Source: Balanoglossus misakiensis
Taxonomy: Eukaryota; Animalia; Hemichordata
Assembly (NCBI GenBank): GCA_040954595.2
Contig: CM082577.2
Span: forward strand, 13,771,903 to 13,835,902
Length of the DNA: 64,000 nucleotides
Direction: 5' to 3'
Positions 17,219 to 53,470 of the stretch are shown here, one piece after another (position 1 is the first letter of the stretch; the number at the start of each line of letters is the position of its first letter). Both the position numbers and the translations under genes were made by a program. The notes beneath the pieces are model-generated. The model searched no databases and was not told the DNA's origin. It saw nothing but the letters and a program-made list of their open reading frames with translations.

Positions 17219-17263
<45 letters not shown>

Positions 17264-18515: not shown

Positions 18516-19410
18516 TTGATCACATTCCTGCCTGGTTGTGGTTGCATGTATTTATAGAAAAATGTATACTATGTATGTGCAGAAAAATTAAACTGAGCTG
18601 TAATGAATATTGTAATAATTTAATTAATATATTAATGTATATACACATAAGAGTCATCAGAAACCAATGATAAGGTAATAAATAATTTCTTCAGAAACAA
18701 TAAGCATAGTGACATTTGTAAATCATTGCTGACTAAAACATATTCTAAAAAATAACAAAGTCAGTCTGTAGTTGAATTAAATGAACAGGTGTCCATTTCA
18801 TTCTAATTGCTTGTTTGAAGATAAATTCATTCACAGAATATTCTCTCTGATGTCAATAAATACAGATTTTAGAAATATTGATCAATAAATAAGTTAAGTA
18901 TTATAAATAGTGTAGTAACAATTTTATATATCATTATATGATTAATAAATTATTGACAAATGATTAATTGAAATTGTTAATCTATATTCCCCTTTTTATG
19001 CACACAGTATTTCATACTTTTGATTGGCTAAGACTGAATCATATGGTATAGGGAAAAAAACAAATTACATGGTTGACAGAGTCTACATATTGCTCATTGT
19101 GAGGGAATATATAGACAGTAAACACATACTAATTGCAACAGCTCAATATCAGTTTTCCAAAATTCTATGAGTACGAAGTACTAGTACAGTTCTCATGAGA
19201 CAATGTGATGACCCTGGACAAGACACTACATGGCCATAATATAATAACACATGATGCACGATTTGTAGCCTGCCCCATGCAGAAGTTATTTTCCCTCATG
19301 ATGTGGAGTATTCTGTTGTACTTTCATTTGCTGTGCACATGAAAGTACTGCTACAGAATACACCACATTACTCACATTAGAAAAATGAACAAATCTGCAG
19401 TGACAAGATT

Positions 19411-21723: not shown

Positions 21724-21894
21724 TATAGTCCTGTAACTAAAAATGACTTTCTAAAGGGGAGGAACAATACATCTCCATGTCACTCGCTCGGGCGGCGTTG
21801 CAGCGCAGACGACACACAAGAAAAGAGTGCCTCCAACATGGCCGACTTCCGGTTTGATGACGTCACGCGAAAAACCTCTATAAACGGTGCGCTC

Positions 21895-23349: not shown

Positions 23350-25478
23350 TGTCTGGCCGAATTATGTCCACCTTGCTTACAACAAAGCGGTCAAAATACG
23401 GCTAGACACTAGAATAGACGTAACCAGCCAGGTCGACAAAACTATGCTAAATTCTAAAACATGGACCACTTTTCCATATTTAAAAAATACACCACTGTAA
23501 AATCATTGAACTGTTTGCTTACATAGTACATGTATTCAGTTTGGGAGTGAGGCGAACTTGGCAATATTTTGGCACAGTCCCTCTGTGATCTAGCTTGGTG
23601 TGTTTTTTTCGTAGCAAAATCTTAAAGCCAATAGGCGAGGATTGATTCAGTGCTCCTAAAGTTTTCGCGTCACAAAACTCGATCTAGGGGGTTTCTTGGT
23701 TTATAAATCCCAGACACACTTTGTATGATAGTTACGACACCTTGCATTCGGCGCAAATTTGAGCCAGATATCTCAAAGCGTCAACGCAAAAACATCGACA
23801 AAAATGTTTTTGTTGCGTTTGAAAGAGTTATGCGATGTTATGCAGTTGGGCCGAATTTTCATGAAAACAGAAAACCGGCAATGATATTGGTTTTACAGGC
23901 ATGAGGTGGGCGTGAGAAACGTATACTGGTGGTCAAGGACATTCACTTGTGGGGACCACAGGCATTAGGCGGTGCGGGGTATGCGCGTAGATGATGCTAC
24001 CCTACAACGGATTGTTACAGTTCTCAACCCGGAAACAAATAGCATCGTCCAAATATCCAATAAAAACGGGAAACTCAGCAGAGACTTGTAGCATTTCGGC
24101 AGAAACTTTGACAATAATCGAGGTATGTATCTATCTTCTGTATACAATCCACTTCACTTACTTTACTTATATTCATTCTCTTGAATGTCCATGCATGCAT
24201 GATTGCTACACATGTATATGTACATGTATGTATTGAATAGTGTGAGATTGCTGGATTGCCAGAATAGATATTTAGCAGCTGCTGAGCTAGATACTTCATA
24301 TCTCTATTACGCGTGATATTTAGCAGCTATTCAGCTATCTAAACTTTTTGAGAAGATTGAATAGAGGCACGCACGGAGGTAATAGTAAGGATTAGTAAAG
24401 AGAACAGCAAATTGGAATAGGTATGAGTTACCATCATTCAGATGTTACAGAACTTGTTGTAAATACTTCCAATTGACAGGGTCAATCACCTTTTCGTAGT
24501 CGACAAAATGCGCACCAACCCCCGGTTGTTGCCGACGGTCATGTCTCTCGGTACGGGGTTTGGTGGGTTGTCGATATAAACCTCTCTGTTTCCATTCTCG
24601 AATACTGAAAACTCATCGCTGTCCTTTGACTTCACAATTGACTGTTAAAGTTCGGCATGGCATGCCAATACCTAAAACACTTCAAATCATTGGCAGATAT
24701 AAAGAAGACAAACAATTCAATAGAAACAGTGTTCTCCCCAGAGCAGTTACAAAGCTGTCATGACATCATTTTGGTGCTTTGTACGGGCTGCAAATTATCA
24801 TATTTTCTTTATTTTCCATCGGAGTTTGGTTTTAGCGAAATAGGGACATGCTATGTCATGACTTGACTCATTAACATAATAAACATTAATAGTATTGTTA
24901 TGTGAATAATGTTTTGTGATTTAATTATAAATTAAACAATCGATTACTTTTCTTTCTACACGTGCACAGCTAACAACATTGTCGACTTGGGACTTTTAAT
25001 TTGCCTGACAAGATGAACAAGACATTGACTTTACTTCTCTGCGTGGGTTTAGTGGTGTCTCTTCTCACTTCCGACGTAGAGGGCGTGAGAAGACGTCACG
25101 CCGGCAGTAACCGCGGTGACATACCCGGTAAACCGGACTTTGAGATTGAAGTCGCGAAGGAAATCCTGTAAGACCTTTTGTCTGATGTGGTGTGGTGTGG
25201 TGTGGCGTGGTATGGTATGGTGTGATGTGGTGTGGTGTGTTCTACAGTGTTGCGTTGTTTTGCGCTGGTTTTAATGAGTAGTTTGTTTTGTACTGGAAGG
25301 TAAGTGTTCTTTAATTTCGACTTTGTTTTTTAACAGGGAAGAATTAGAAGAAGAAATTCAGGAGAGGGAAGTGGAGAATGAAATAAGGGAGAAAATAATG
25401 ACGCTGGAAAAAATCTTGGATGAGGAATAACAAAGGCCAAGTGTCGGATGAAACCACGCACCATCTCCTCCCATTGCG
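23350..25478 (+). repeat. Segmental duplication block C, containing the peptide gene (copy at ~31470-33618)
   Basis: About 2.1 kb of collinear near-identity; paired ORF-track translations (e.g. 23965/32037, 24657/32733) are almost identical. Confidence 0.92.
25013..25430 (+). CDS. Small secreted peptide precursor, copy 1 (82 aa; antimicrobial-peptide-like architecture)
   Basis: join(25013-25167,25337-25430), GT-AG, phase 2: MNKTLTLLLCVGLVVSLLTSDVEG|VRRRHAGSNRGDIPGKPDFEIEVAKEILEELEEEIQEREVENEIREKIMTLEKILDEE*. Signal peptide ends V-E-G; frame conserved in the paralog. Confidence 0.8.
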
Positions 25479-27959
25479 TGTCTCGCACACAGTAGTCTGT
25501 TACAGATAAAAATATTACCAATTATTTTTTGGCATATTCTGTAATTCGTGTATATGCGGCCCGGTCAGAGTTTCAGGTACTCGGCTTTTGTATTGTAGTT
25601 TTGAGGGCGTTTTTAGGCCCACCTTTGTAGGAGATTCTATATTTACCTATTTTACAGTGTTTATTGTAATGTTAATTTTACTCGCCAGTTGACCTTTGAC
25701 CTGTACCTCCGTTGTTGAGGCAACTGGCGAGGAATTTTTCATCATTTTTATACATTGGTAACTTTGCAATAAAGTGTCAAGGTCACTTGGCCAACTTTTC
25801 TCCACTTCCGGTTATGTCGTGTTTTTGTATCTCCCACAGACAGAGTAAAATGACCAGTACAGGTCTAGTTTGATGCCGGGATATAAAATATAATTGATTC
25901 TTCAGTAAACATCCATAAACGTTACATTTCATTCGTTCTTTCGAAAAGTGACCGCGAAACAGAGGCGTTCAGAGTGTCATGTTATTGACTATTTTATTTC
26001 GGAGACCGTGGGATGGATCGATGACCAGGACTGACTATTATTGCAGATTAACACAACTATTTATTCAGAGTATATACACGACTGTGCCTGCAGTCCGCTA
26101 TGAAAACAGCAAGAGAGCGAGAGTAACTATAGGGTTTCATACACTGGAAATCAAAGCGAGGGCGCTATAGCAAAGATAGCTAACACAGGGTGATAACACA
26201 ACACAGAGTAGCGATGAAGGATGCAGCGAGGCAGGTGCAGACTTTGTGTCGGTCTATCAGGAAATACTATTCAGGCGATGTGGCATCTATGAACACCCAA
26301 TCAGTATCCGACCTGTACAAGTACGTCGACACACAGATGTCCTGTCTCCCTTCTGCAGATAGTTGAACGCGTCCGTGGGTCTGGCGGGGTAGAACACGTT
26401 CTCGGGTGATGTCTAGGTGGTGATGGTTGTTCCCAGAGCCCCATATTCAACGTCAAATTGATGTCATGACACAAATTTCGAGACCGTGGCAGAATTATGT
26501 TAGCTCTGTCTCTGGCCCGGATGCTTGTTCTGTGTGTGTGGCAGTGTGTTTGTGCGTGCTCACATTCAAGAGTGCAAACAAGCAGAGTTGTAATAGTTCA
26601 CTGTTTGACCATCCTCTCTTTTTGTAAGGAGAAGAAATAGCATTGAAGCATTCTCTGTTTTTCTTCCCCTTCTGTTTACAGTGAAATATTCTGTAGTTAA
26701 ATACCGCCCCCTGTGGCCAGCTCATCCGATATCTGAATCGAACCAAGCTTCACATTGCGAAAGTTGGCTGTGGTTTAACAACTGAAGTCTATACTTTTGT
26801 CAGCTGTTCTCATCTGAAGGGCCCCACTTGCGTGGAGAATGCAATGTGCTTATAATAATGTAAATCAATCTGTGGTTTAATGATCCCGGGCTGAACTAAG
26901 GTCGCCAATACTTTTGACACAAGCAGCTAATTTGAATGGATACATAAACCAGAAATTATAATAACATGCGCATTTTGGTAGCAGTGTTTCGGGCGATTAA
27001 AATTTTCTGCGTTACAAAGCTCAGAATGGGAACTTGCTGGTCGGTTTCTGTTCTCTGGATCCGTTAGTCTAAAGCCGTTCCATGCAATCACGGAGACATG
27101 TCGTAGCCGATCGTTTTACAAGGACGGAGTAGCATACATTTCACTTCCACGCGCACGATAAACATTCTCTACATAGATTACATATACAACAATGGGCGTA
27201 TTGTATGGCACCTTTTGTTTTTTTTTGTTTGATATGAGAAAGTGTCTATATATCTTTGACTTCTTGAAACGTGCTTGCATGAGCAAAGATATCGTCAGCG
27301 TATATGGCTCGAAATCCTCGGGATAGAGGGCGCCCTTGAATGTAACATACCGGACAAAACCAAAGGAACACCTCGATCGAATGCCTCTCAAAAACATGTT
27401 TATTATTACATGTTTTATATTTTTGTTTCAGTGCCGTGAAACATTGCGCTCATTTTATTTACAATTTAACTAAACCGAATCGTAACTTTTTTGTGGACAA
27501 ATTCTATACACATTTTAATAAACTATGGGGTCACCAGCTTTTTTATAACGCCACAACGTTGTACACTAACCCCTTAGAATTCTGAAATGGAAAAAAATCA
27601 AGAAACATTCGCTCTTCCAATCATTCTGTGGGCTTATGCAAATAGTACACCGATATTCCAATTGTTAATGGTTGAACATTGTATTGATGATATTCGTCAA
27701 TGGATGATTGAAAATCGTTTGATTTTAAATGATGTCAAGACAGAAGTGATCCATTTTCGTTCGAAATTTAAGAAATCTGTTGACCTGCCATTTCTCAGAG
27801 TAGGGAATACTGATGTTACCACGTCTAGATCCGTCCGCGATCTTGGTGTTTATTTAAACCGCTATGCAGATATGAGTTCTCACATTATCAAATTATGTCA
27901 GTCTGCGTCATTTGCTCTCCATAGAATTGGCCGTATTAGAAATGTTTTATATCGCTTAA

Positions 27960-28466
27960 AGGCACGTAAGCTGCAACTGGATAAAAAATTAAAGTTTTAA
28001 ATAATCTCATATATGCTTTTAATTATGTCTATTAAATGATATTTCATGATAATATATCAAGCTCAACACTTATTTATAAATGACAAAATTGCCAAAAATT
28101 AAAGAAAAACGAAAATTCCTTCAATTTTAAAAAAGTGCAATATTGCGATGAAAAATGAAAATCTGATGTCTCAGTGGTGAACATTTACTTCCATGAGCTC
28201 AAGTGGATGAGATCATGTTTTGTTTATGAAGTTTCACAACAGGAAATGCAACATTTTCATTGTTTCTTGCATTTTCCCACGGTGGCGGCCATATTCGCTT
28301 GTGGCAAAGCTTTATTATTTATCTGGTTAAAACTTGCATATGCACTCATATTTAGGGTTTATAATGCTTGTGTATAGTTCACTGCCTTCATCTGCATGGA
28401 CTAATGGTAGTTCCGTTTGAAACAAAAATTATGAAAATTATCCCAAAAGTTACAGCTTACGTGCCT
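27960..28466. mobile_element. Kolobok-type MITE nested in the LINE
   Basis: TIRs AGGCACGTAAGCTG...CAGCTTACGTGCCT with TTAA on both sides. Confidence 0.85.
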
Positions 28467-29731: not shown

Positions 29732-32700
29732 CATCACGCATAGATTACTGCAGCAATTTGCTGTTTGGTATTGAAGATAAGCACCTTTATAAAGTCCAGT
29801 TACTTCAAAATTCTGCTGCACGTCTCGTCAAACGCACAAAAATGCATGAGCATATCACATCGGTGAAACGGGAGCTACACTAACTGCCTATCCATGCTAG
29901 AATCAATTTCAAAATTCTCCTTTTTGTCTATAAAATTTTGCACAACCAAGCTCCTGCCTATCTGTCTGATCTGATCACAGTTCATGAACCTAAACGGTTG
30001 ACACGCTCAGCGTTCACACCAACTTTGGAGCCAGTGAACTGGGAGCAGAAACACTTTGGTTACCGTTCATTTTCTAATGCAGCGCCAACTCTTTGGAATG
30101 TCTTACCAAAAGAAATTAGATTGTCACCAACCGTTGCTTCGTTTAAGACGTCTCTCAAAACTTACCTTTTTAAGAAGTACATGACTTAGTCACAGTTTTG
30201 TTATTTTTAATAACATTTTTTATAAAGTATTAATGCCGAGTAGTTATTTTTGTTAATATGGTTACCTGTTTTATTTTGTTCTGTTCTGCTTTGTTTTGAT
30301 TTGATTTTTATTGTTTTGATTTGATTTGTTTTGTTTAAGTGTGTGTGAGCCAGGCATGTTCCCACAAGTACCAGTTTACTTCTTTTGCTTTTTTGTTTCG
30401 TGTCTCCATTACTTTTTGTTCTTCTCCCTATTGTATCCCAAAATGAAAAATGTTCTGGTGGACAGCGAGTCATTCTTACAAACCATTGATATTGTTGTCA
30501 AATACATTCATGTCTAGACTTGAATTTTAATCAATTACAATGAGAGACCATGTTGAGGAGGGTGTGCGTTTAATCCTGCGATGAGGAGCTAAACAAGAAA
30601 CCATGCGTTATATACAGAAAGAAGAAGGAAAAAACAACATTTACAGATAGTGGGGCTTACTATTATTGTGTGCTCCTGGTGAACGTCACCGTGTTAGAAC
30701 GAGTGCATGGGCATATTTTTTATCATGAAATGACGGGGGAGGGGTGGGGGGGGGTAAAACATATGCTACTCCTCCAGCTTCCTGTGCCTCAGATCATCAA
30801 GAACTTGTGTCAGTGGCTTTTCATGACGAGAACTATTTTCCATATGAAACATTGCATTCATTTTATTTACAACTTAGCTATTAAACTGGATCATAACGTT
30901 TTGGTTGGACAAATTCTATACAAATTTGATTTATCACTCATGTCTTCTTATTTGAATCTACAGAGAGTTAACACTGTTGCAAACTGAAATGTATACTTTA
31001 CATTACTTTTATCAATACCTTGTCGATTTGTTTAGAATTTTACTCAAGAAAATTTATAATTTAAAAATTTAATTTCGATAAAATATGGGGTCACCATCTT
31101 ATTTATGACGCCACAATGATGTACACTAACCCCTTTAAAATTCAGAAATGAAAAAAAAATCAAGAAACATGCGCTCTTCCAATCACACAGTGGGCTTATG
31201 CAAATAGTATACCGATATTCAAATATTTAATATTTAATTAACGATCGTTTAATCATCAATAACAACGTTCTTTTTTGTGTAAAACTTTTCCTACACGGTC
31301 ACACAATGCAGTGTGGAATGAATGTGGTTCACTTCACCTTAATGATAATTTCGGTCAAATTTTCGGTATCTTTTTTTTTTAGCAAAACCGATCCCGTACA
31401 GCGACGAAACTGGGATCAGCGAACAAGCAATATATATGTCTTAACCGCCGTCAATCATAGCAATAGTCTAGTATCTGGCCGTATTTTGGCAGCTTTGTTT
31501 CAAAATGCGGCTAGGTACTAGAGTAGACGAAACGGTACTCTCCAGCCAGGTCGACAAACATTTGCAAAATTCTAAAAACATGGAGCACTTTTCCAAATGT
31601 AAACAATACACCAATGTAAAATCATTTTGGGAGTCAGGCGAACTTGGCAATATTTTGGCACAATCCCTCTGTAATCTTGCTTGGTATTTTTCATAGCAAA
31701 ATCTTAATGCCGATAGGCTAGGATTAATTCACTGCTCCGAAAGTTTACGTGTCATAAAACTCGATCTATAGGGGTTAAAATCCAACACACGCTATGTATG
31801 ATAGTTACGACACCTTGCATTCACACAAATTTGAGCCGGATATCTCAAAGTGTTAACGCATAAACATCGACAAAAATGTTTTTGTTGCGTTTGAAAGAGT
31901 TATGCAATGTTATGCAGTTTGGCCGATTTTGCATGAAAACAGAAAACCGGCAATGACATTGGTTTTACAGGCATGAGGTGGGCGTGAGAAACGTATACTG
32001 GTGGTCAAGGACATTCACTTGTGGGGACCACAGGCATTAGGCGGTGCGGGGGGGGGGGGGTATGCACGTAGATGATGCTACCCTACAACGGCTTGTTACA
32101 GTTCTCAACCCGGGAACAAATAGCATCGTCCAAATATCCAATAAAAACGGGAAACTCAGCAGAGACTTGTAGCATTTCGGCAGAAACTTTGACAAGAATC
32201 GAGGTATGTATCTATCTTCTGTATACATTACTTACTTTACTTATATTCATTCTCTTGAATGTCCATGCATGCATGATTGCTACACATGTATATGTACATG
32301 TATGTATTGAATAGTGTGAGATTGCTGGATTGCCAGAATAGATATTTAGCAGCTGCTGAGCTAGATACTTCATATCTCTATTACGCGTGATATTTAGCAG
32401 CTATTCAGCTATCTAAACTATTTGAGGAGAGTGAATAAAGGCACGCATGGAGGTAATAGTAAGGATTAGTGAGAGAAACAGCAAATTGGAATAGGTAAGA
32501 GTTTCCAACATGAAGGTGTTACTGAACTTGTTGTAAATACTTCCAGTTGACAGGGTCAATCACCTTTTCGTAGTCGACAAAATGCGCACCAACCCCTGGT
32601 TGTTGCCGACGGCCATGTCTCTCGGTACGGGGTTTGGTGGGTTGTCGATATAAACCTCTCTGTTTCCATTCTCGAATACTGAAAACTGTCATCGCTGTCC

Positions 32701-33087
32701 TTTGACTTCACAATTGACTGTTAAAGTTCGGCATGGCATGCCAATACCTAAAACACTTCAAATCATTTGCAGATATAAGAAAGATAAACATTCCAATAGA
32801 ATCAGTGTTCTCCCCAGAGCAGTTACAGAGCTGTCATGACATCATTTTGGTGCTTTGTACGGGCTGCAAATTATCATATTTTCTTTATTTTTCATTGACG
32901 TTTGGTTTTAGCGAAATAGGGACATGCTATGTCATGACTTGATTCATTAACATAATAAACATTAATAGTATTGTTATGTGAATAATGTTTTGTGATTTAA
33001 TTATAAATTAAACAATCGATTACTTTTCTTTCTACACGTGCACAGCTTGAACATTGTCGACTTGGGACTTTTAATTTGCCAGACAAG

Positions 33088-33567
33088 ATGAACAAGACAT
33101 TGACTTTACTTCTCTGCGTGGGTTTAGTGGTGTCTCTTCTCACTTCCGACGTAGAGGGCTGGAGAAGGCGAATAGGCGCTAACCGCGGTGACATACCCGG
33201 TAAACCGGACTTTGAGACTGAAGTCGCGAAGGAAATCCTGTAAGACTCTTTGTCTGATGTGGCGTGGTGTAGCGTGGTGTGGTGTGGTGTGGTGTGGTGT
33301 GGCGTGGTTTGATGTGGTGTGGTGCTGTGTGGTGTGGTGTGGTGTGGTGTGGTGTGGTACAATGTGTTGTTCTGTATTCTACAGTATTGCGTTGTTTTGC
33401 GCTGGTTTTTAATGAGTAGTTTGTTTTGTACTGGAAGGTAAGTGTTCTTTAATTTCGACCTTGTTTTTAACAGGGAAGAATTAGAAGAAGAAATTCAGGA
33501 GAGGGAAGTGGAGAATGAACTAAGGGAGAAAATAATGACGCTGGAAGAAATCTTGGACGAGGAATAA
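33088..33567 (+). CDS. Small secreted peptide precursor, copy 2 (81 aa)
   Basis: join(33088-33239,33474-33567): MNKTLTLLLCVGLVVSLLTSDVEG|WRRRIGANRGDIPGKPDFETEVAKEILEELEEEIQEREVENELREKIMTLEEILDEE*. Confidence 0.8.
33257..33360. repeat. (GTGTG)n pentanucleotide repeat in the peptide-gene intron (shorter copy at ~25187-25240)
   Basis: Direct inspection. Confidence 0.9.
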
Positions 33568-33906
33568 CAAAGGCCAAGTGTCGGATGAAACCACGCATCA
33601 TCTCTTCCCATTGCGTATCAAAGTTTTCCCTGTCTTTACACAGGCTTTATTACGAAAATAAAACATAATCATTTCATACCACATTTTACCTTGTTTTAAT
33701 ACTTTTAATGAAGCAAAACAAAAGACATTAGACGAAGGAATCACAGTACGAGAATAGAAGATAAAGACCAAAACAAAAAACACAACGCTACGGAGTTGAA
33801 ATCCGTTTAACAGGTCCATTTTTAACGCAATACAATATTCAAGTTTTCTTATCGTACTAACCATTTTCGTGTAGTTGCGTAATATAAGTCTCTAAGGGTT
33901 TGTTAA

Positions 33907-37599: not shown

Positions 37600-40500
37600 T
37601 TAGAATTCGGAGTCGGTTGCACCTGACTTTCTTTCGGAGTCCGGATTGCCAGATTTGGCGATGTAGCTGTCTTGGGGTCTGTAGCATCCACAGGTTGCAC
37701 CGAAACACCAGATTCCACAACCACGATGTTTGCAGTCGGTCATTGATTGGTTGCACTTTTTCAAGTCACTCTTCGAGCCAATTTTGCACATCCTTCGTAG
37801 TTTGGCGTTTTCAGCTTCAATCTGGGAAAAGTGTAGTCATAGTTTCTCAATATCCAAGAGATATTTCCCCCACATGTAAACTAACATATTGTTAAACATA
37901 TAATCCAATTGACTCCGATTTGGAATGTCTAAATTCGAACGCTGACCGACTGGGGATTATGAAAAAAAACACGTAACATCATAGCACATAACATAACATA
38001 TCATAACATATCATAACATAACATAACATCACATAACATCACACCACATCACATCACATCACACAGCACCGCACCACACCACACAATACAACATAACACC
38101 ACACCACACCACACCACGCCACACCACACCACACCACACCACACCACGCCACACCACACCACGCCACACCACACCACGCCACACCACACCACACCACATC
38201 ACATCACACAGCACCGCACCACACCACACAATACAACATAACACCACACCACACCACACCACGCCACACCACACCACACCACACCACACCACACCACACC
38301 ACGCCACACCACACCACGCCACACCACACCACACCACAACACACCACATCACATCACACAGCACCGCACCACACCACACAATACAACATAACACCACACC
38401 ACACCACACCACACCACACCAAAAATAACCAAACCACATCACACCACACCATACCATCACCTTACATTACTATGTTGTGATGATACATTTCTCCGCACTA
38501 ACCTCGGCGATCGTTTCTTTCAAGGTTGCAGTATCTTCATTTTTTCCGCTGACTGTAGTTATATCATCCGATCTTTGTGATTTGCCGACAGTCGTCACAG
38601 GCTGCCCTTCCGGATATTTCGCTACTGAAATTATCTGCAGGTAATGATCGATAAACTATTATTCACTACCTAACCGAGTACCCATACAAACATCCATCCC
38701 TCCGTCAACCAATCCGATTGTCTGTGTCTGTCTGTCGCTTTCCCGTTCGCCTATCTGTCTGTCTGTCTGTCTGTCTGTCTGCATGTATGTGTGTATGTAT
38801 GTATGTATGTATGTATGTATGTATGTATGTATGTATGTATGTATGTATGTATGTATGTATGTATGTATGTATGTATGTATGTATGTATGTATGTATGTAT
38901 GTATGTATGTATGTATGTATGTATGTATGTATGTATGTATGTATGTATGTATGTATGTATGTATGTATGTATGTATGTATGTATGTATGTATGTATGTAT
39001 GTATGTATGTATGTATGTATATTTGCCTCTGTATATTTGGACCTGTCTGTGCAGAATACTAGTACATATAACACAGTTTCAGACAAACATCAAAAATCTT
39101 AATGTGATTGTTGCAAACCTCACCTTGGGTATGAACACCATGAGTAGCGTAAAGGTTGTGCAGAAAATGTTGATGGCAGCCAAGCACACGTAAGCCGCAT
39201 TCATATTGTGGCTGATGACTTGACTGACAGCTACCCCGATGATGCACAGGACTATGACATTGTACACGCTCATCCCGATAAATTTACTGTCGTTCAACGC
39301 TGGTATCCTAACCTAGAGTGTAGAGACAGCACGCAGTGAAGGTAATGAAAGTGTATTACTGTAAAATTAGAAGTAACATGGACAAGGTCGTTGTCGTTTG
39401 ATAATTTAGAATGCGTATTTGTCATTTCAGGAAACAATGGTGTGGCTCTGTTTATTGAAGTCATGACACGAAGAATTATCACAACTTTATCAAAGACAAC
39501 ACCTTCTCTCTTAGGCATCCGTTAGCTCTCTTGTTGAAATTTAGACATCGTAGAAGGAATCTCCATACATCGGTGATCACGGCATGGAGGTACAAAAAAC
39601 CAACCTTTCTAGTTTCCCAAGCCAGGAATGTGCCGAAAATGAGCAACAGGCCTTTGTAGCAGTATAGCGCCCCCAACCAGTATGTCAGGTGGTCCGAGTG
39701 ACAAAACTCAACCATTGGAAGAATCTTTCGAGTTTCGTCATATGGGTCGTCCTGAAAACAATCCAAGGGCAATCACGTGAACAATACGTCTGATATGGAC
39801 GCCCTGGTTAAAGCTTCAGTTATATTAATTTAACACGTTCCGGATACACTGCTTTAGCGTACAAAGTTTCCCGTCACGTATATTCTAGAATTCCTGTGCA
39901 CAAAACCAACCACCCACAAACACATACAACTTTGCAATGAATAATGTGCAAGTTTAAGCATCATTAACATGTATTTCCACTTATTTACAATAAACGACCT
40001 GTAGTCCAAGAATAATGCGTTGCGTTTGAAATGTTTTGAGCAAGTGAGAGAAGATGGGAAAAGCCAACACTGCAAAGACAAGGATACAAACAGAATGCGT
40101 TCATGTTATCACCGTTGCTGGAGGGCGAATGCTCTCATCAACTAGTGGCGTTATTCGCGAGAAGACGCACCACGTTTTATCTGGTGAAGGTCAAGGCACT
40201 TCAGTTCACACCGTTTCGACGACTACAGCTCGATACAACTGCAAATGGTTATTTCATATCACTGCATTTAGAACTATGCGTGACTTACGACCAGACTGAG
40301 CTGCGATATCTTCCTCTGAACTGGGTCCAAGATCTGCCATGCCGATAAAATGACGATGTCGATCAACGCAAGCACCATCACCATCACGAAAAGCTGCTTG
40401 TCAGTCACAACCTGAAATATATAGGGGAACGTTGAATTAGTTGATCGGTGAAACTAAATGTACCGTAAGTTGAATTATATGAAGGCAAAGTTGAGGTCGA

Positions 40501-43500
40501 ATGAACGAGTCTTGTTTTTTTATCCCATGATAAGGGATGATATTAACATTTTATTTTATGTGACCGGTGGACCGGTATTCTGTCACCCTCTCGAAGCCTA
40601 GCTAGAAAATGTAGAACATAAATTCACTCTGTGTTCGGGGTGAAAAACAAGGCATACCGTTTCAACGTTTAGTGTTGACATGATTGCTGCGACCGTCAAG
40701 CGCAGATTTTGATCCAATAAAATATGCGTCGAAGTACAGAAGAAAAATGGCGACATCAATGGTTCATCGTACGCCATTCACGTCCAATTGGAGATATCAT
40801 TAGGACCCCGGGGGGGGGGGGTATTCGCTGGATCTTACCCGTCGTTTTGGAGTCTTCATTTTGGCCACTCTGTGAACCCTCCAAGTTTTGCTGAACATGG
40901 CACCGAACGCAATGACGAATCCCAGAGACAAAACCCAAATGCGCGTCTGTAATTGTGATGAAAAACCGGTCAAAAATCGAAGAATTAATTCTCCTCAGTA
41001 CACCTTGCGAACAAATGCAGATTTTGAATATAACCTTGATAATCATTGAGGAGGGTCCATAGCCCTCATCTTGGCATTTTCCGGTGGTCCTGTGTCATTC
41101 GAACTGACTTGTTATGATTTCACGAGTTTTGTTCGCTCTTATTTGCGTGGCACACAGAATCCTGAAACGGCCAGAAAATGTCAATATGTGGGCTGTGCAC
41201 CGATAGTTAGTCTACATCGTAATTTGTACCCCCAACCAACTACCGCCGGTGACCACAGCTCGAACTGTCAATGAAGATGGCTCCTGTCAACATTTGCAAT
41301 AGGTTAACACCGCGTGACCCCTCCTGAGCTTAATCTACACAACATTCGGGAATACGGTGAGAATAGTTCATTTGAACTTACCTGACACATTATTTGAAAA
41401 GTTTCAGGCGAAACAAGATTGTTGTCCAACCCGAAGAAGAACACGGCAGCATAGAGTAACAGAGTGCCCATGATCATGATGTTGTTGAGATTGGGACTGG
41501 ACATTTTGACATACCTGAAATATGACACATAGCCATTTTTCTCAGACGGTGATATATGATTTCGTCTTTCGATTAACTAGTGCAAGTTGGGGGTAGAATT
41601 GTTGGGTGTGTCTGCGTGAGTTCGTGCATGGGCAAGCAAATTCGTGGGGCGACGCACGTTTGTGCAGTCCGTTGCATTGCCCGCTCGACCACGGCCTCCC
41701 TGAAAGACCATGGCGGGCGAAGATGAGTCTGTTGCATTAGTTTTAGTCTGTATACGTAAGAGATACGTATATCGTCACTCTGACGACATGGTACCACCAA
41801 TGGTTTGTCGCAGGCATGCAGTCACATGACTACGGACATGTTTACAAGCGCGCCCTTTTCAGGATGCGAACTTATTAAAATCCGACCACAAATTTATGGT
41901 GAACAGGCTTGTAGCTAAAGCAGGTCAATTCTTAACATATGTTCATCCGATATATTGTCTGCCAACTTGCCTCTGCTGTCGGTACTTGATGTTAAATCCC
42001 AAGAAAAACAGCGCCATCAGTATCCCCAGACAGGAAACTCCGCAGATGCCGAAATAGACCTCAGGCATCACTCCTTGGAACTGCTCCACCACCGTTATAA
42101 CCACTTCCGGTGTGTGGTCCAGAGGTACGAAACCGCCTGAAAAGGCAAGCAGCAACGAAAGTGGGCTTATTCGTAGACGCTTCGTCTCAATTTTTCTTTA
42201 CAGCTGACACTGGAAAATTGCCTCCTCTCCCATCTTCTACACTAACACTATAGAGATACCGGCAATAGGCCCCGTGTACTGAGGTATGCGCATTTGTCAG
42301 ATTTTGAACATTTGATATTGCAGTCCCGCTGAGTATTTACATGTACATGTAACAATTAAGGGGATTGATGTCGTTGTTGAAGATTGCGCAGGTCTCATCC
42401 AAACCCCCATTGTTTCTCTCTTTGATCAGGTGAACATTTTCTTACCTGGCCACTGAAAACTCGACACGTAGTTCATGATATCTCCGTTCTCAATGTAGAG
42501 GGCCACAGTTTTTTCAATATAGTCTGTAAAAGAAAATAGCGGAGTAAAGGTGCTGGTTGCAATCTTCTTACAAAACACATCGGCATTTTGTTTTCATGCA
42601 GAGGGGTCAAAGGTTCAATATCGATGGCTTCTCCGTTCGTGTCATGCAAAACCAGGAGGCATAAAAAAAATCACCTTGTTGTTTTTCGCAAACGAATCTC
42701 CGCTTCGCGTCACAGCTCGTGATTTCCCACAATCCACCGCGACCTGCCAGCCCGCATCTTGCTTCGCCGCCGCCGGGGTTTGTCAGAAGACTTTCCTCGG
42801 GGGAGAAATCGATGGGCGTCCCGTCCACCCACATGAGAATCGCTTCGCCCGTCAAACCGATAAACCTAATGCGGAAATCAATACATAACACTGCAGATAT
42901 TCTGTATGATTAAAAAACTCGTTATTTCTTATAAAACTAACAAAATGACCAGATTATGGGAGATATCGGATTATGGAAATCCACGCCAAGTGTATCATGG
43001 GAAGAAACTTAAACGTCGAGGAAAAGCCGTATTATAAACATGCCTAGTTAGATTAACGAATAAAGAATTTGGAAGAGATGTACGGTATATTATACCATTT
43101 CTAATAACATAACATTTTGCCTCTTCGTTTATTAACGTATCCATGCATTCCAACTTACCAGTCTATGTTGTCTGTCGCGTGATCCCGAATAAATTCATTC
43201 TCCGTTTCTGTTTCTATGACGATCAGGTCAGAACTTTTTTCAAGGCATTTTGCCCGGGCTTCCGACCACGTTTCAGTGGCCGGACTGAAGTAGTAACAAC
43301 TGTCGTTAAACATGACCCAATCACTCGGACAATCCGCTGAAACAAAAAAAAAAGAAAACAAAATAAGGAACGCACGAGACAATAACTTCCGTGGTTTCTG
43401 AAAGGGGGATATAATCATGACACTGTGATAATTCCAAGTACAATTGCAGCGCTGGGCATTCGAGTTTGGAGTTTCACTATTCGGCAGAGACAGATAATTT

Positions 43501-45137
43501 GATTGTAGCGTACAGGTTTTAATATATTTGTAAAACCTTGGGATATTAGAATATCATAGCAAAAGGTTTTATTTCCGACTTAATCTCCTGACCTACAATT
43601 ATGGTTATTGTCGAATTATCATTTATTTTGTAAAGCAGCGCCCAGCTTTACGTTTAGTGGGTGCAAGTTGGAAGTGCTTGGACACAATCAAAACTTGAAA
43701 CTTGGCAGGTCGGTTTGCCACAGGCAATACAATATGTCATCTTGCAGACTCATAAACAAAGACTAAAGAGCAAGATGTCTGGCTGATTAGAAATAAGCAT
43801 AGTATATAATAAATTGATTTCTAGATATCTTTCATGTTCTTGTCGTTGTAACGCCATCGATCGCATATTTCTTGCAACCGGCTACTGTTGGCTAACGTGG
43901 TATCGCCAAACGTTTATTGGAAAGTCAAAGTCTCGGCACAGCCCCCTCCATCACAGTGGTCACAGTTTGGCAGGCGAGACTAGAGTCGTAGCATACCTTG
44001 TAACTGTTCCACTTTAATAAGTCCCTGGCGATCACCGTTCTTGAAAGTTACCGGGCCCTGTGAAAAAAGTACAACAGCGTGATTAATTTGCAACATGATT
44101 TTCCCGTTTTTGTCTTCAAATCATCCACAACATGCCCCCGTTGAATATTTTTTTTTTTTGGGGGGGGGGGGATGTTCTCTTAGAACTGTTTGGATCTGGC
44201 ATATCCGGTCATGATATCCGCTATTCCAGGCGTTTAATTTTGGATTTTATTAGGGATTCACTTATCCAGCTTTGTTCAAATTGACCAAATAGCATTTTGG
44301 ACACTTCCATGGTAAACGCCACCTTTGTAAAACATCTGGTGATTCAACAACTTTGATATTTAATATACAAATTCTTGACGCGCATTTCCCTATATCAGCT
44401 AGCATAGATCGATTGCTGGGGATATCAATTATCATGACTGACCATGGTAAGAATACCACTGTGTTTCTATAAATATTGTATGCACGCAGACAGTAACATA
44501 ATTATGTATATGCTGATATCAATATATTAAGTGTTTTTGTCTGACGTCAGGAATTTATCGTTATAACAGAGGTTTCGTGACGCTATATATATATATATAT
44601 ACTTACAGATGTTCCGATGAAATTGGTCTTGCTCATTTTATCCAGGAACACCATCGCCATCTCTTTGTCGTCGTACGTGAAATCCTCCAGGCGCCTGGTG
44701 GAGTTGTCGGCGAACCGTTTCGTTCTCAGCTCTTGCACCGATTCGTTCAACAACAGGGCGATGGTCCACACGCCGTCGTAGCCGTACGGCGCCAGTTCGT
44801 TGTAGACGTACCTTTGGTTTTCCGGCCACTGCATTCTTTCACTGTACATGTCCATGAATTCCGCAGCCGTCTGTTACAGTTTTGGGGAAAAAACAGTTTC
44901 GAAATGTGACCACGTGAAAAAAACGTGTACACGCGTGACGCGCGAATTACGGAACAATGTCGGGAAATATGTTTGTCAACACTAGATTGATAAGACTTCT
45001 TACTTACAAGGTTCACTTCGATCAGCCGATATAAAGTATGCACTGTACATTATTTGACAACGTGAAATGCTTACAGCAAATTGACTTTTAAAGTACACAA
45101 ACATACAATACATGCATGCATGCATGCATGCATGCGT

Positions 45138-45176
<39 letters not shown>

Positions 45177-47434
45177 TGACAAAAGAACAAAGAAGAGTTC
45201 ATATACAATGCCAGCGACGGTCTCTTCTTCTGATGGACTTAGAGGCAAACTTTCCGTTGATATATAAAACGACCGTTTTACTACTTGGCCCATCTCCTCT
45301 CTGGTGCAATCGATCATTTCATCCTCCACATCCCACCACGATTTGTGATACCAACCGCTGATCATCCACACATAATCTGGTCCAGCCATGCCTTGTTTGT
45401 AGGCCTTAATAGGAAAGATCACATGGGTATCATAACCGTGGTGACCTATGTTATTATTGGATATTTAAAAATCGTCAATCAGCATTGTCAATGACTTAGT
45501 CTCTGTCGTTTATTTGACATCACCAAATTAATTGAAGCCACCATGGTTACAGACAGGTGTGGTTCATTGGAACGAGACCCTATTTGCTAGCGGATAAATG
45601 ATCTGCACCCCCAGTTGAAGCAATGGTAATATGAATACATTAGCCACTTTAAATGAAATGTAAAGTTTGACCTAGAGGAAAAACTATTAGGGGTTCAATG
45701 CAAACCCGACTGCTCTGGTTCAAATCACACACATTTAACTTTTTATATCAACCCAGCGAGAGCATGTAAAAGGTTGAACTCCAAGCCGTCATTTTATAGA
45801 ATGGACTACTTTGGCGAAACGAACTAAAACGCAAGGAATTCTAACCTTACCTCACAGAAGAGTCTCCTGGCCTTATTTGAGTACATGTTGACGATGATAA
45901 TTTTCGCGTCACTGTTCTGTAAAGAAGAGTGACGTGTGGGTTTAGTTTTTTAACCGTTCGGAGTTGTCTCTGTATCCGTCGGTGTCTATCTCCGTCTTCG
46001 ACTTTACTTGTTTACTTAGCACTGAACTACCGATCAATTACCTTCCCCATCTTGCATCTTTATTCTCTCTCTTCGTCAGGTTCAATGAGAAATAAGACAC
46101 TCTTTACTGAACAATGTGACATCTAAAACGTGGCCTTAACGAGAAACGTTTATATGCATGTAAGCGGAGAAGCACCGAAAGCTCATCTTCCAATAAAATA
46201 GCTGTCATGCACGTTTTAAAGGGACAAAGTCTGTCTCTCCGGCATCCCACTTGTAGACACGAGAGTGAAAATCTCACCAAAATGAATAATAGGTGTTTAC
46301 CGTTTATTCATCTTGGCGAGATTTTACTCTCATATCCTACAAACGGGATGGAAGTCGTGTGTGGTCGAACGTTGATTCACTATATATCCACATGTAGAAT
46401 AACATAAACATTGTCTTGTATCAAACATAATTAATGGAAAAGGGGCAGCGAGAGAGAGACTTTGTCCCTTTAAGAGTCGACACTTGTTCACACAATACAA
46501 GAAATCAACAACTAATAATTGCTTTCGTGCCTTCAGATTTTCGATCTGGTTCTTGGGATTTTCAGCGAAGTTCTCCGATTTGATTATCGTAATGTTGTTT
46601 GCTTTCAATAGCGTGAGTAAGTCGTCTATAGCCTACAATGGAGTGAAGGAGAAAGCAATTTGAGATTTCTGAAATACCAAACTGATGAATTTCCTCAGAG
46701 GCTTCAAATGATTGTGGAAAACTAGTCGGAAACAGATAGACCGTGACCCAGTAGTACCCCCCCCCCCCCCCGAGGGGGATTTTTGAGACAATGTTTTTCT
46801 AAAAGCTTATCACATGCTGAGTAAAATTCACTTTGTTTGCCATCTGGGCACCGGGGCGTTTTCGAGTTATTGTCTTCTAAATTATATTGGGTAACGTATG
46901 TAGGAAACCCTAAAAGTGCATATAAATTGACGTAGGGGGGGTGAATTAGTCTTGTAAAATACTGTCTTTCTGAAGGTATACCTAGAACAACTGGGATGTA
47001 TTTGGTATCAAAAGAAAGCTTAATAAACAAGCTTTCCATTAATTTCAAATATAAAGTGATATGGCAAATCATGACATCATGACGTCATAATTCAAACCAC
47101 CCTTACGAAAATGGTGTTCTGGTTGATTAAAGTATCCAATTATTACAAAAAAATTGATATGGTAATCAATTACGACAGTATTTTACCAGACTAATTTGCC
47201 CCCTACGTCAATTATATGCACTGTTAGGGTTTCCTACATAAGATACCCATTTAGAAGCCAATAACTCGATGGCAGACAGAGTGCATTTTACTCAGCATAT
47301 GATAGGCTTTCAGAAAAAAAACATTGTCTCAACCCCCCCCCCCGGGGTAGGGGGAAGTAAACCAATACCTGCTCACGGTCCAAGAAGGAAAATATTAACT
47401 TCATCCGGTTTCTTTTGTATGATACACACATTCA

Positions 47435-47481
<47 letters not shown>

Positions 47482-50400
47482 TGTTGACAAAAGACAGAGA
47501 ATTAAGAGACAAAACTGTTCACATCACGAACAAGATTTCAATTATATTTGAACTAAAAGTAACATACTAGCGAGAAGACAGGGTAGTTTTCATGAATAGT
47601 GGCGACTCGTGTCCATCCAAAGGTTTTCATCAGGTGAACTCTGGCCGGGTTGAACGCAGTGTCTGGTATGTAGATACGCGAGAAGTAGGGATATTTTTCT
47701 CTGTTGGACAGCGCCGGAGAGGCAGCACCATATGATAGCTGTGAGAAATAAGATGTTTTCAGATGATTGGGTTTTTGTCTTGGATATATTGTGCTGTGGA
47801 TTGTATACATACACATACAATCATTAGAGTCGAGCGATGGAAACCCCTTAAAGCCTCTAGAGCTGCCACTTTTTGCATCATTTTCATGATTTAATTTTCC
47901 AACTTAAATTGGTCCATCTTAATCAGCTTACTGATAGGTATACATACACACCTTATCGTTGCCCGATTGTGACTGCATGTTGCAATTTGGACACGCTATG
48001 TTTTAAACCGGTGCCGCACCGATTTAATAAGCCTCCGTACAAACAGAACGCAGCTATCGTGGTGTGCGTCGACAAGAGATGACAAACTGATGCAAATGCA
48101 AGTAATATGGCTTGATGGAGAGGATTTTAGAGGATAAGGTATATATTTGAATTGTTTTACTATGGAAAAAATATGTCAAATGTGGCAGCTGTATGGGCTT
48201 TAAGTATTATGTAGTATTGTTTGTCAAAAATGACTAATAACCTGAAACCGGTTTAATTAATAAGGATGCGAATCTCTGATTCCTTTGGTGACGTGTACTG
48301 TGCCGCCATGCTGAGATTTAGGGACGTGAATATCATTTTGTATAGGAAAATATCACGAGTTGGAGTGGGTTTACAATGGAAACCTTGCCGTGACGGTCAG
48401 AAGCTTGTAAGCGTCACCAGGTCGCACTGTTTCTAACTAAGAAAGGATGGGTTTACTTGTGAACCGCACACTTTCTAACAATGAAAGAAACAAAAGAGCA
48501 TCACGTAGTAATGACCAGACGATCGGTTATGGAAAATAAGAAGCATGGTTGGAACAATTAGCACGAGGCAAAGCGTGGTATATAAAATGAAAAGTTCTCG
48601 TTGGGTTTGGCAACCTTTCGTCTAACAGAACACTAGCTTGCGCTGCGCTGAGAAAAGCTCGAATAATGTATGATTTGCGCGCCATTATTACATGTAATAA
48701 GGAAAACAAATGCCAGCGGCCCTCACACAGCGAGGAATGCCGAACGTCTCCAACCTAAAAGGATACGACTCGAAATAAACCGTCAAATACTGACAACGAG
48801 GATAACAAGGCCCGAGAAATGCACAAAACACTCACCACAAGCAAATTCCAGTGAACTCCAGTTTCGGCCATTACAGCTGAACCAGGCGAGCAGGGCGGTC
48901 CCAATATCATGATCTTCTGCGGAGGGTTTTGCAATTGGTGAAAGAACACGCGGGTCGCCGCTCCAGACTCGCACTGAAAACGGAACAAGTTACAGGCAAT
49001 TACACAAACTGTTGGTTAATTTGTTTGTGGAGTGTGCGCGATGGGGGACGGATTCAATCTGTTGTCATGGAAATGCGACACGGGTATCACAACCATGATT
49101 TCTGTAGTTACTGGATTTTAAAAATCGTCATCAACCTTAACATCGTCCATAAAACAGTCTCTGTCGGCTATTTGACATCAAAATGTCTGGTTCTCTCGAA
49201 AAAATCCCGACTGGCATTTAACAAGAAAAATAACGCCAAGGACACATTTTCTCTTCAGTCTGTAATCATAGCCTTAGACGGTGTTTCCGAAGATCTGATA
49301 TTAATACACATTCCATAACATTCGAATATTATTTTCAAAACTGCTGCAAATTTAGATGGCACCTATATACACTGTACCGTTAACTATTGTATTCCATATC
49401 CACAGTTCAAATTATGACATGAATATTTGAACTCGTGTGCATATTCAGGTGACATAATTATCCTTGGTCGTTATTTTGAACCGATAGGCCAATTTGAGGA
49501 GTGATCTTATTCTGTATATTAGCTCAATCATTCACTTACTATTGTTACAATCGGGATCGCAAGAATAGGTCAAAAATACTAATTAACCCGACAAGAACAT
49601 AAGGGCCGCCTCACTCTTTTTTTAGTCGACACTTCGACAGAGATGGTTATTTGAAGAGTTTATCTTCCCCCAGGGCCCTATAAGTATTGTCCCATTTACA
49701 GTTCTTTTTAATCAAGAGACACACGCACATACACACACCAGCGATCCTTCGATAGAAAAGGTCCGCGGCCATATCTCGAACTCATAATCGTCGGATTACG
49801 AGTCACTACTATGCCACGACGCCTCCGAAAATAACCACGTGATAGAATCACTGTGCATAAATTGTAAATCTTAACATAAACTGGATTATATTTTATTTTG
49901 TTTCACAATGTCCGATGTGTAATAACCAGCAACAAACAGCTGTGAACGCGACACTGCTGTAGCAAAGCTCAATACATGTAGATTGATTTTGCACCTGGCG
50001 TATTTGCAGGTTTTCAGGGGAAAATGAAGGAATGTGCTATACTCTCGCTTTTCTGATTGGTTTCTTGGTCGAGGGGTTTAGTTGGAATATAAACATCTTT
50101 CATTTGTAAGGATATCGTTAACGTTGTGTTGATTAAATAAGTTAACATTGTGATCCATTCCCCTTTTCAACAAGTGGACGAACAAACAAGAAGTAGGATA
50201 GAATATCATTTATTTCTGTTCGCCAAAATTCGGAATAAACGATTTTTTTTACATTACCCTGCTGTCGTTCCACACCATTCTCAGCTCATACTCCGGTAGG
50301 ACGTCGTCCCGTGCGTTCACGTGATCGAGACCCATCTCCACGGCGGGAATCATCCCGCCGCCATCCCAGTTTCCGCCGAGGCTGAAGAACGTTCCCAGGT

Positions 50401-50602
50401 AGAGAGGAATCCTCCCCGCGGCGGAGGCCGGCGTGGAGGCAAAGGAAACGCGGCCGTGTCTGTCGTCGTCGTCGTCGTCATCGGCGGCCGGTGACTGCGT
50501 AGCACTGAAAGGGGGGACCTCTCCCACGGTGGAATTAACTGGAACGGCTGCGGATGAGGCAATCACGCTGCAAAGCACACAGACGGCCGCGATTCTTAAC
50601 AT
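37600..50602 (-). CDS. GABA-B receptor-like class C GPCR with an inserted C-type lectin domain, ~1003 aa, 19 exons
   Basis: Exons: 50258-50602, 48836-48973, 47568-47738, 46531-46632, 45851-45916, 45207-45404, 44607-44870, 43997-44057, 43159-43336, 42675-42865, 42446-42523, 41971-42136, 41382-41514, 40839-40946, 40289-40411, 39605-39751, 39124-39312, 38503-38634, 37600-37821 (3012 nt, all phases compatible, no stops). Motifs: signal peptide, PAVEMGLDHVN, LSYGAASPALSNR, YGYDGVW, KMSSPNLNN, FGAMFSKTWRVH, YKGLLLIFGTFLAWETR, ALNDSKFIGMSVYN, FIPK. Confidence 0.92.
37975..38460. repeat. (CACCA)n/(CATAA)n pentanucleotide array with higher-order repetition
   Basis: Direct inspection; the variant block acacagcaccgcaccacaccacacaatacaacataac recurs three times. 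Confidence 0.92.
38783..39020. repeat. (TATG)n microsatellite
   Basis: Direct inspection. Confidence 0.95.
42675..43336 (-). CDS. C-type lectin-like domain exons (exons 9-10 of the receptor)
   Basis: CPSDW..FNDSCYYF...TWSEARAKC...L..I....ENEFI...WFIGL...WVDG...C......W....C....FVCEK; the module is bounded by phase-1 introns. Confidence 0.88.
46739..47380. mobile_element. Unclassified long-TIR element in receptor intron 3
   Basis: Ends gaccgtga...tcacggtc; inverted arms ttgagacaatgttttt...tgctgagtaaaat / attttactcagca...aaaaacattgtctcaa. Confidence 0.65.
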
Positions 50603-52489: not shown

Positions 52490-53470
52490 GCAATTCGCTC
52501 ACAGCTGGCATCGTGCCGAGTCAATTTCAAGTCAGCGATAATTCGTCCATTGTTAAAAGAAAGTTGATCTGGATCAGAATATTCTGAAGAACTACAGACC
52601 AGTTTCAAACTTTCCTTTCTTGTCAAAAGTTCGCGAGCGTGTTGTCGTTCAGCAATTAAACGTAACAACCACCTCACTACATTTAGTCTTTTTCACAAAG
52701 TTCCAAAGTGCTTACCGCGATATAAACTGCTCTCCTTCGTGTCCACAGCGACACCATGCTTTCCTTGAATAACAAACATGATGTGATTCTCATCATGTTA
52801 GATTTATCAGCGGCGTTTGACACTATCGATCATGAAATAATGCTACAGAGACTACATCATCGTTTTGGAATAACTGGTAACACTTTATCGTGGTTTCGTT
52901 CGTACCTCGTTAATCGCCAACAGTGCGTCAAGGTTGGATATGCATCATCCCCTTGGAAGATCTCGCGTGAAATATGGTGTTCCACAAGGATCCGTTCTAG
53001 GACCTCTCATGTTTACACTCTACACTGCACCTCTGGAAGACATCTTCGGAAAACACGGGATTGATTGCATGATATACGCGGATGATACGCAAATTTATGC
53101 CATCTGCTACAGTCCTAACGATGTTCGCAATAACATCGAGCTCTGCGTCGATGATACCCGCAGCTGGGTGAAATCTAACATGCTTGTACTGAATGACGAC
53201 AAAACTGAAGTTATTCACTTTTCATCTCGTTTAAAATCTAATGTGACAAAGTCAGACAGCCTGAGAATCGGTCAATGTGACATAATTCCTTCAGTTTCAG
53301 TTAGATTTTAAGACATGATGGTAGCATGTCTGATCATATCAATATGCTACATGCAAAAATGGTTTCTTCTCTCTGCATAGAATAGCCAAGATCCGTAAAC
53401 AACTTGACAGATCTACAACTGAAAAACAAGTTCATGCATTTGTAACGTCTCACTTAGACTACTGTAATAG
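52490..53470 (+). mobile_element. L2/CR1-type LINE reverse transcriptase fragment (frameshifted)
   Basis: LDLSAAFDTIDH, GVPQGSVLGPLMFTLY, YADDTQIY, LNDDKTEVI, VHAFVTSHLDYCNS. Confidence 0.9.

Follow-up and report, generated by a model that had tools for sequence, protein, structure and literature searches.

Background

C-type lectin-like domains (CTLDs) occur on the outside of multi-pass receptors in adhesion G protein-coupled receptors (GPCRs) as well as PKD1/REJ proteins, where the CTLD is a serial N-terminal module and the seven-transmembrane (7TM) region is of another class or fold than the one considered here. For animal class C GPCRs, the available part of a 2025 survey gives just three ectodomain layouts and suggests that the architecture is constrained; GABA-B (γ-aminobutyric acid type B) receptors are assigned the ANF_receptor domain alone, and the survey's main text does not contain the word 'lectin' (PMC12716839). 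In the present study, we analyzed 64,000 nucleotides of the acorn worm Balanoglossus misakiensis (GenBank assembly GCA_040954595.2, contig CM082577.2, positions 13,771,903 to 13,835,902 of the forward strand; hereafter the window), which contain a gene for a GABA-B-type receptor with a complete CTLD inside its ligand-binding flytrap. The receptor belongs to an old hemichordate and echinoderm family that is neither GABA-B1 nor GABA-B2; as a class C GPCR variant, it is apparently undescribed.

The original prediction, made from the letters of the window, knew of no described receptor with this architecture. This holds for the open full-text literature: no description of a receptor with ANF_receptor, CTLD, and 7tm_3 was found there, and the layout is not mentioned in the accessible portions of 10.1101/621060, PMC12716839, PMC7217437, PMC9759900, PMC6267866, PMC7308585, and PMC3251606. 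It does not hold for databases: RefSeq proteins that go by 'GABA-B subunit 1/2-like' or 'uncharacterized' already show the domain string when annotated automatically with Pfam.

Results

Position and splicing of the insert

The receptor gene occupies 37600..50602 of the minus strand and has 19 coding exons (3012 nt), whose borders were fixed under the guidance of the closest database protein. Spliced together, the exons give an uninterrupted frame of 1003 amino acid residues that is 72% identical over its full length to Ptychodera flava XP_070576464.1 (P0001). The product consists of a signal peptide, the flytrap (residues 65-448), the CTLD (449-571), the last flytrap strands and stalk (572-620), the 7TM region (621-886), and a tail with a coiled coil and a Cys-rich motif. 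As in class C receptors of the GABA-B-like type, Pfam detected ANF_receptor and 7tm_3, without NCD3G, in the exons and in four orthologs. We are practically certain that the combination of ANF_receptor, CTLD, and 7tm_3 is real in this gene.

Exon 8 (43997..44057, minus strand, as are all exons below; 61 nt) encodes the hinge and the flytrap strand that enters the insert, and has a phase-1 donor. Exon 9 (43159..43336, 178 nt) encodes the first half of a long-form CTLD with three Cys and ends, in phase 2, within the Trp codon of a WIGL-like motif, which is a common position of CTLD introns. The second half, with three Cys and without EPN, QPD, or WND, is encoded by exon 10 (42675..42865, 191 nt; phase-1 donor), and exon 11 (42446..42523, 78 nt) encodes the last two flytrap strands, which are paired back onto the strand of exon 8. 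Exons 9 and 10 together amount to 369 nt with AG/GT ends and intron phases 1, 2, and 1, and each is matched separately by Pfam Lectin_C (E 5e-5 and 3e-4, respectively). The positions of these and the flanking exons, and the total length, are exactly those of the original prediction, which had also correctly described a complete long-form CTLD lying in frame within a GABA-B-type receptor, with phase-1 borders and an open skip form; without exons 9 and 10, the frame stays open over 880 residues.

All 18 introns of the gene end in AG; their first two letters are GT in 16 cases and GC in two. With splice-site matrices built from the remaining 16 donors and 16 acceptors of the gene, the donors of the CTLD exons ranked at the 99.7th and 97.0th percentiles among 929 GT sites, and their acceptors at the 98.5th and 82.4th percentiles among 607 AG sites; the splice sites of the CTLD exons are equal in quality to the others of the gene. 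A separate lectin gene had been named as an alternative, and here we saw neither a signal peptide nor a second start for such a gene. A profile scan of the window for CTLDs found the pieces in exons 9 and 10 and no further ones.

The distance from the insert-site Gln to the Trp ahead of the stalk is 25 residues in human GABA-B1 (chain positions 405 to 430) and also 25 in the skip form; thus, the insertion added 123 residues and removed none. The original prediction had placed the insert directly before transmembrane helix 1 (TM1). In fact, about 49 residues, comprising two more flytrap strands and the stalk, intervene, and the insert sits inside the flytrap fold although the Pfam ANF_receptor model stops just ahead of it. 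With phase-1 introns at both ends and no host residues lost, the insert is a class 1-1 module, the pattern that exon shuffling would leave. The echinoderm gene models P0026 and P0112 break off or read through at the edges of the insert, which hints that echinoderm introns lie at the same places as in the window gene.

Sequence and predicted structure of the CTLD

We compared 28 complete CTLDs (that of the window and 27 others), and excluded four partial ones. All 28 have six Cys. As predicted for the window, EPN/QPD and WND were found at the canonical places in none of the 28, and an EPN string occurs elsewhere in P0016 only; from these sequences, classical Ca2+-dependent sugar binding by the CTLD is unlikely. 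The fold itself is that of a CTLD, with two helices, the strand pattern, the conserved disulfide Cys, and a WIGL-like core. According to the accessible part of a published account, proteins or lipids are known ligands of CTLDs without Ca2+-dependent sugar binding (PMC7308585). Over one set of 23 proteins, the mean pairwise identity is 27% for the CTLD versus 47% for the flytrap plus 7TM, and the invariant or near-invariant CTLD columns are nearly all Cys, Trp, and core residues; this pattern would fit a domain whose fold is kept and whose surface is free to vary. Between the window and Ptychodera proteins, the identity is 84% in the flytrap pocket and 48% in the CTLD. In nearly all members, the flytrap strand and the first CTLD Cys are a fixed distance apart.

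The Ptychodera ortholog was modeled by AlphaFold2 with a 70-row alignment (mean predicted local distance difference test (pLDDT) 86; predicted template modeling score (pTM) 0.68). In the model, flytrap strand 436-445 leads straight into the first Cys of the CTLD, and the last CTLD strand (559-566) continues as flytrap strand 568-578, in both cases without a linker and with a pLDDT of 93-97. Foldseek superposed the whole human GABA-B1 ectodomain (4MQE, 4MR7, and 4MQF) across the insertion with a template modeling score of 0.93 (551 columns, 409-residue chain). The flytrap is predicted to be intact, with the CTLD in place of a hairpin turn. In type I periplasmic-binding folds, this strand leaves the hinge in the direction opposite to the cleft; thus, the tip of the hairpin would lie at the membrane-side base of lobe 2. 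The CTLD would then hang from this base, away from the ligand cleft, at approximately the position of the cysteine-rich domain in metabotropic glutamate receptors (mGluRs). The stalk, the strands of extracellular loop 2 (ECL2), and a long tail helix (coiled coil) are also predicted.

Distribution and phylogeny

A search with one flytrap exon gave four proteins among 30 candidates, from Ptychodera flava, Glandiceps, Saccoglossus, and Patiria, and all of them have ANF_receptor, Lectin_C, and 7tm_3. The insert region of P0001 alone gave two proteins among 186 candidates, and the alignment search reached further (52 matches among 7994 candidates scored). From a profile search of 1.84 billion representatives, we took the best 150 of 26054 matches, and the combined set contained 194 proteins. 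At least 30 of these, from 12 species of hemichordates and echinoderms, have a CTLD at the same flytrap site; there were also one protein with a CTLD fragment at the site and 12 multi-CTLD proteins without GPCR domains (from the profile search, with one cluster named MRC1 in Branchiostoma), and the remainder were CTLD-less receptors or fragments. The insert is present in three hemichordates (Ptychodera, Glandiceps, and Saccoglossus) and, among echinoderms, in sea stars (Patiria, two Asterias, and Acanthaster), a brittle star (Amphiura), urchins (Lytechinus and Diadema), and sea cucumbers (Holothuria and Apostichopus). Among the matches listed, which are the top of the ranking, every hemichordate member of the clade has kept the CTLD, four echinoderm classes have it as well, and no CTLD-bearing example came from crinoids, chordates, or protostomes.

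Of the 30 proteins, 12 come from sea cucumbers and six from a brittle star. The sea cucumber proteins P0035, P0070, P0098, P0125, and P0146 form a fast-evolving sub-branch of CTLD-bearing receptors, in which P0035 has lost the B2-type intracellular loops. Within each sea cucumber species, all RefSeq/GenBank members lie on contigs of one and the same length, which suggests tandem clusters.

For the phylogenetic analysis, the CTLD was excised from every sequence, and a quick IQ-TREE was calculated from 63 of 149 rows with the Shimodaira-Hasegawa-like approximate likelihood ratio test (SH-aLRT) as support; three remote outgroups, the CTLD rows P0009, P0026, P0027, and P0125, and many other rows were left out. 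One branch (SH-aLRT 99) unites 20 CTLD-bearing rows and four CTLD-less Amphiura rows. The GABA-B1, B2, and B3 clades, which are labeled from protein names, are each supported by an SH-aLRT of 100 and are separate from this branch. The window protein is sister to the Ptychodera protein (SH-aLRT 99) and lies outside both the GABA-B1 and the GABA-B2 clades, that is, it is an ortholog of neither; Ptychodera also has separate proteins in the B2 clade (P0061) and the B3 clade (P0099). The flytrap-only tree keeps all 15 CTLD-bearing rows together (SH-aLRT 99). In the simplest reading, the CTLD was gained once, by one exon-shuffling event before the split of hemichordates and echinoderms. It is cleanly absent from the brittle-star paralogs P0018, P0019, P0021, P0022, and P0028 and from P0020, which are nested in the clade, and the simplest reading here is at least two clean losses in Amphiura paralogs. 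These CTLD-less paralogs retain an intact flytrap and 7TM. With such clean absence inside the clade, the core receptor appears not to need the CTLD.

Splice isoforms with and without the lectin exons, which had also been proposed, were not borne out. Each of the four closest database proteins has one recorded product, which includes the CTLD. Apart from two models that look defective, no CTLD-less relative exceeds 61% identity to a CTLD-bearing one. The CTLD-less relatives are separate genes, and by frame splice isoforms are possible. The possibility that P0023 and P0025 (85% identical to P0016) are skip isoforms was rejected, because the following flytrap exon is lost too.

Ligand pocket, 7TM region, and tail

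The accessible part of a Nematostella preprint lists the GABA contacts as W65, S130, G151, S153, H170, Y250, and E349 (10.1101/621060). With GABA-B1 numbering mapped by alignment, the window protein keeps four of these seven (W65, S130, G151, and Y250) together with C103 and C129, and has A, Y, and L in place of S153, H170, and E349, respectively. Among 24 CTLD-bearing rows, S130 is found in 23 (one gap), S153 in four, E349 in one, and H170 in none, and the A/Y/L triad occurs in 10 (acorn worms, sea stars, a brittle star, and an urchin). The GABA-B1-clade rows have S153 and H170 in 11 of 11 and E349 in 10 of 11. A pocket that is changed but conserved suggests that the ligand, too, is conserved and differs from GABA, while it probably remains a carboxylate.

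GABA-B chains are the top matches in both sequence and fold searches of the PDB. The 7TM region is 47-49% identical to four B2-clade proteins versus 27-41% to six B1-clade proteins, and it has GABA-B2-type intracellular loops 1 to 3 (ICL1-3) with equivalents of K574, L686, and D688, residues that have roles in G-protein coupling. As a ligand-type flytrap and a coupling-type 7TM are in one chain, signaling without B1 or B2 would be possible, and the receptor is best read as an orphan that is probably self-sufficient. The combination of a B1-like flytrap and a B2-like 7TM is more simply read as retained ancestral features than as a B1/B2 recombinant; the latter origin was rejected, because domain-wise trees keep the CTLD group separate for both the flytrap and the 7TM.

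The RxR retention motif was looked for in the tail of the receptor and not found. In exon 19 (37650-37720), the tail has a Cys/Trp-rich motif, and a similar pattern occurs in 12 of the 30 family rows tested versus none of 120 outside GABA-B-like rows; this motif is possibly a palmitoylated membrane anchor.

Other exons and neighboring features

Exon 1 (50258..50602) contains the start codon, a hydrophobic signal peptide, a low-complexity linker, and the start of the flytrap with the W65 equivalent. The flytrap continues in exons 2 to 7 (44607..48973), which lie at 48973-48836, 47738-47568, 46632-46531 (GC donor), 45916-45851, 45404-45207, and 44870-44607. Exons 12 to 17 (39124..42136) encode the stalk and the 7TM with its GABA-B2-type intracellular loops, and lie at 42136-41971 (GC donor), 41514-41382, 40946-40839, 40411-40289, 39751-39605, and 39312-39124. 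The cytoplasmic tail, encoded by exons 18 and 19 (37600..38634), has the predicted coiled-coil helix and the Cys/Trp-rich motif, which is common in the family, and no RxR motif. The introns that start with GC are introns 4 and 12 (46531 and 41971), and the donor of intron 4 fits the usual GC-donor consensus weakly.

Elsewhere in the window, a two-gene DNA transposon occupies 16347-21750, with a THAP domain and a DDE_Tnp_4 transposase on the plus strand (16347-18512) and pieces of a YqaJ-like exonuclease on the minus strand (21750-19414); we take this to be an ISL2EU/Harbinger-related layout. A tandem duplication of about 2 kb (23536-25479 and 31622-33616, 93% identical) carries in each copy a small gene (starting near 25014 and 33088) with three exons for a signal peptide, a short Arg-rich peptide, and an acidic tail. 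Pfam gave no match for these genes, which differ mostly in the basic peptide and look like antimicrobial or neuropeptide precursors. A small multi-exon gene on the minus strand (3913-5654) encodes a von Willebrand factor type D domain and apparently ends right behind it. Fragments of retrotransposons without long terminal repeats are found at 52726-53308 (RVT_1 match at 52874-53308) and, by appearance only, at 27578-27997, 29884-30186, and 318-617.

Discussion

Our preferred explanation, which we hold with moderate confidence, is a receptor whose flytrap takes a small non-GABA acid as ligand, whose 7TM signals through Gi/o by itself, and whose CTLD works as a rigid protein-docking module and no sugar sensor. 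The acid would close the flytrap and, in the manner of other class C receptors, thereby lead to Gi/o output. The CTLD would provide an accessory docking surface that either targets the receptor to an extracellular partner or tunes the closure of lobe 2 in the dimer; this role would resemble that of the GABA-B1a sushi domains, at a different location.

Several observations weigh against this explanation or against the family history on which it is set. The place of the CTLD relative to the membrane and the dimer partner is deduced from strand order, in a model with a pTM of 0.68. The quick change of the CTLD would be equally compatible with a passenger that is nearly neutral and with a sensor that diversifies. 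As far as the preprint was accessible, H170 and E349 are predicted to be dispensable for agonist binding in Nematostella (10.1101/621060); thus, GABA may still be a ligand. In the 7TM-only tree, one long-branch sea cucumber row falls outside the CTLD group, and a FastTree with three very distant outgroups was rooted within that group, probably due to long-branch attraction.

Among the alternatives, it is unlikely, though worth keeping in mind, that the CTLD is itself the sensing domain, which has a protein, glycan, or microbial surface as its target and drives activation through its rigid fusion to lobe 2. The fusion without a linker in the model and the fixed spacing ahead of the first Cys would suit this role, and the rapid divergence of the CTLD and the paralog expansions in sea cucumbers and the brittle star would suit a recognition family. 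However, the Ca2+/sugar motifs are absent, the higher identity to Ptychodera in the pocket (84%) than in the CTLD (48%) suggests that the ligand site is in the flytrap, and the flytrap and 7TM are intact in paralogs without the CTLD. The sensing of microbial surfaces, raised in the original prediction, is unsupported, and the insert would lie away from the ligand cleft. We think it rather improbable that the CTLD is a tolerated passenger at a permissive hairpin tip, retained mainly through the need to fold and of small functional effect. The mean CTLD identity of 27%, the conserved columns made up almost solely of Cys, Trp, and core residues, and the two or more separate losses in Amphiura agree with such a passenger, but the domain has been retained in all hemichordate members and four echinoderm classes, despite symmetric phase-1 exons that make its loss easy, and it is 48% identical to that of the Ptychodera ortholog.

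There is little reason to expect that the protein remains a receptor for GABA, or that it must pair with GABA-B1/B2, with the CTLD as a targeting add-on to ordinary GABA-B signaling. GABA-B structures do lead the sequence and fold matches, S130, W65, Y250, and both lobe-1 cysteines are kept, the tail has a coiled-coil helix in the model, and the Nematostella prediction for H170 and E349 would relax the demands on the pocket; nevertheless, the protein falls outside the GABA-B1, B2, and B3 clades, Ptychodera owns separate B2-clade and B3-clade proteins, S153 is lost as well, and the tail has no RxR retention motif. It is hardly credible that the CTLD exons lie outside the receptor mRNA, as a nested gene, by constant skipping, or as an artifact of the gene model: the skip form does stay in frame, but the splice sites are strong, the exons have no start or stop of their own, the same fusion was annotated independently across 12 species, and the predicted fold is seamless.

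Apart from our preferred explanation, a bolder reading, which we regard as doubtful, is a receptor with two inputs, in which the flytrap would read a small non-GABA acid, and the rigidly fused lectin-fold domain on lobe 2 would read a protein or cell surface and gate the G-protein output. If true, this would be an undescribed, Ambulacraria-wide class C GPCR subfamily, and its ectodomain design would be the fourth in animals for this class, after ANF alone, ANF plus NCD3G, and Cache plus EGF. The family, which acorn worms and four echinoderm classes have retained, is a stable exception to the constraint of three layouts, and it shows where the GABA-B flytrap can accommodate an entire folded domain. 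The natural paralogs with and without the insert offer material for testing the coupling of lobe 2 to the 7TM. Many hemichordate and echinoderm proteins labeled 'GABA-B subunit 1/2-like' are probably not GABA receptors.

Comparison with known receptors

The receptor resembles GABA-B1 (GABBR1; PDB 4MQE, 6WIV chain A) in the flytrap fold, the lobe-1 cysteines, and W65, S130, G151, and Y250, and its flytrap scores 292 bits against GABA-B1 versus 238 bits against GABA-B2. The residue spacing at the insert site is identical to that of GABA-B1 once exons 9 and 10 are skipped. Unlike GABA-B1, it has a CTLD in lobe 2, replacements of S153, H170, and E349, no sushi domains, and B2-type G-protein loops, and it forms a separate clade. 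With GABA-B2 (GABBR2; PDB 7C7S, 6WIV chain B), it shares 7TM identity, the motifs of ICL1, TM3, and ICL3, and the strands of the stalk and ECL2, whereas the flytrap is only 31-37% identical, the pocket residues are B1-like, the CTLD is inserted, and the clade is separate in both flytrap-only and 7TM-only trees.

The insert's best sequence matches among solved structures are CTLDs of the mannose-receptor family (PLA2R, MRC1, and LY75) and CLEC4C, all of the six-Cys long form; in contrast to these, it is a single domain embedded in a GPCR and has no Ca2+ site 2 motifs. Like mGluRs, CaSR, and T1Rs, the receptor would carry one more disulfide-rich domain, close to where lobe 2 has its base. In those receptors, however, NCD3G follows the flytrap in series and is joined to TM1, whereas here the CTLD is a side branch within the flytrap, and the GABA-B stalk is kept.

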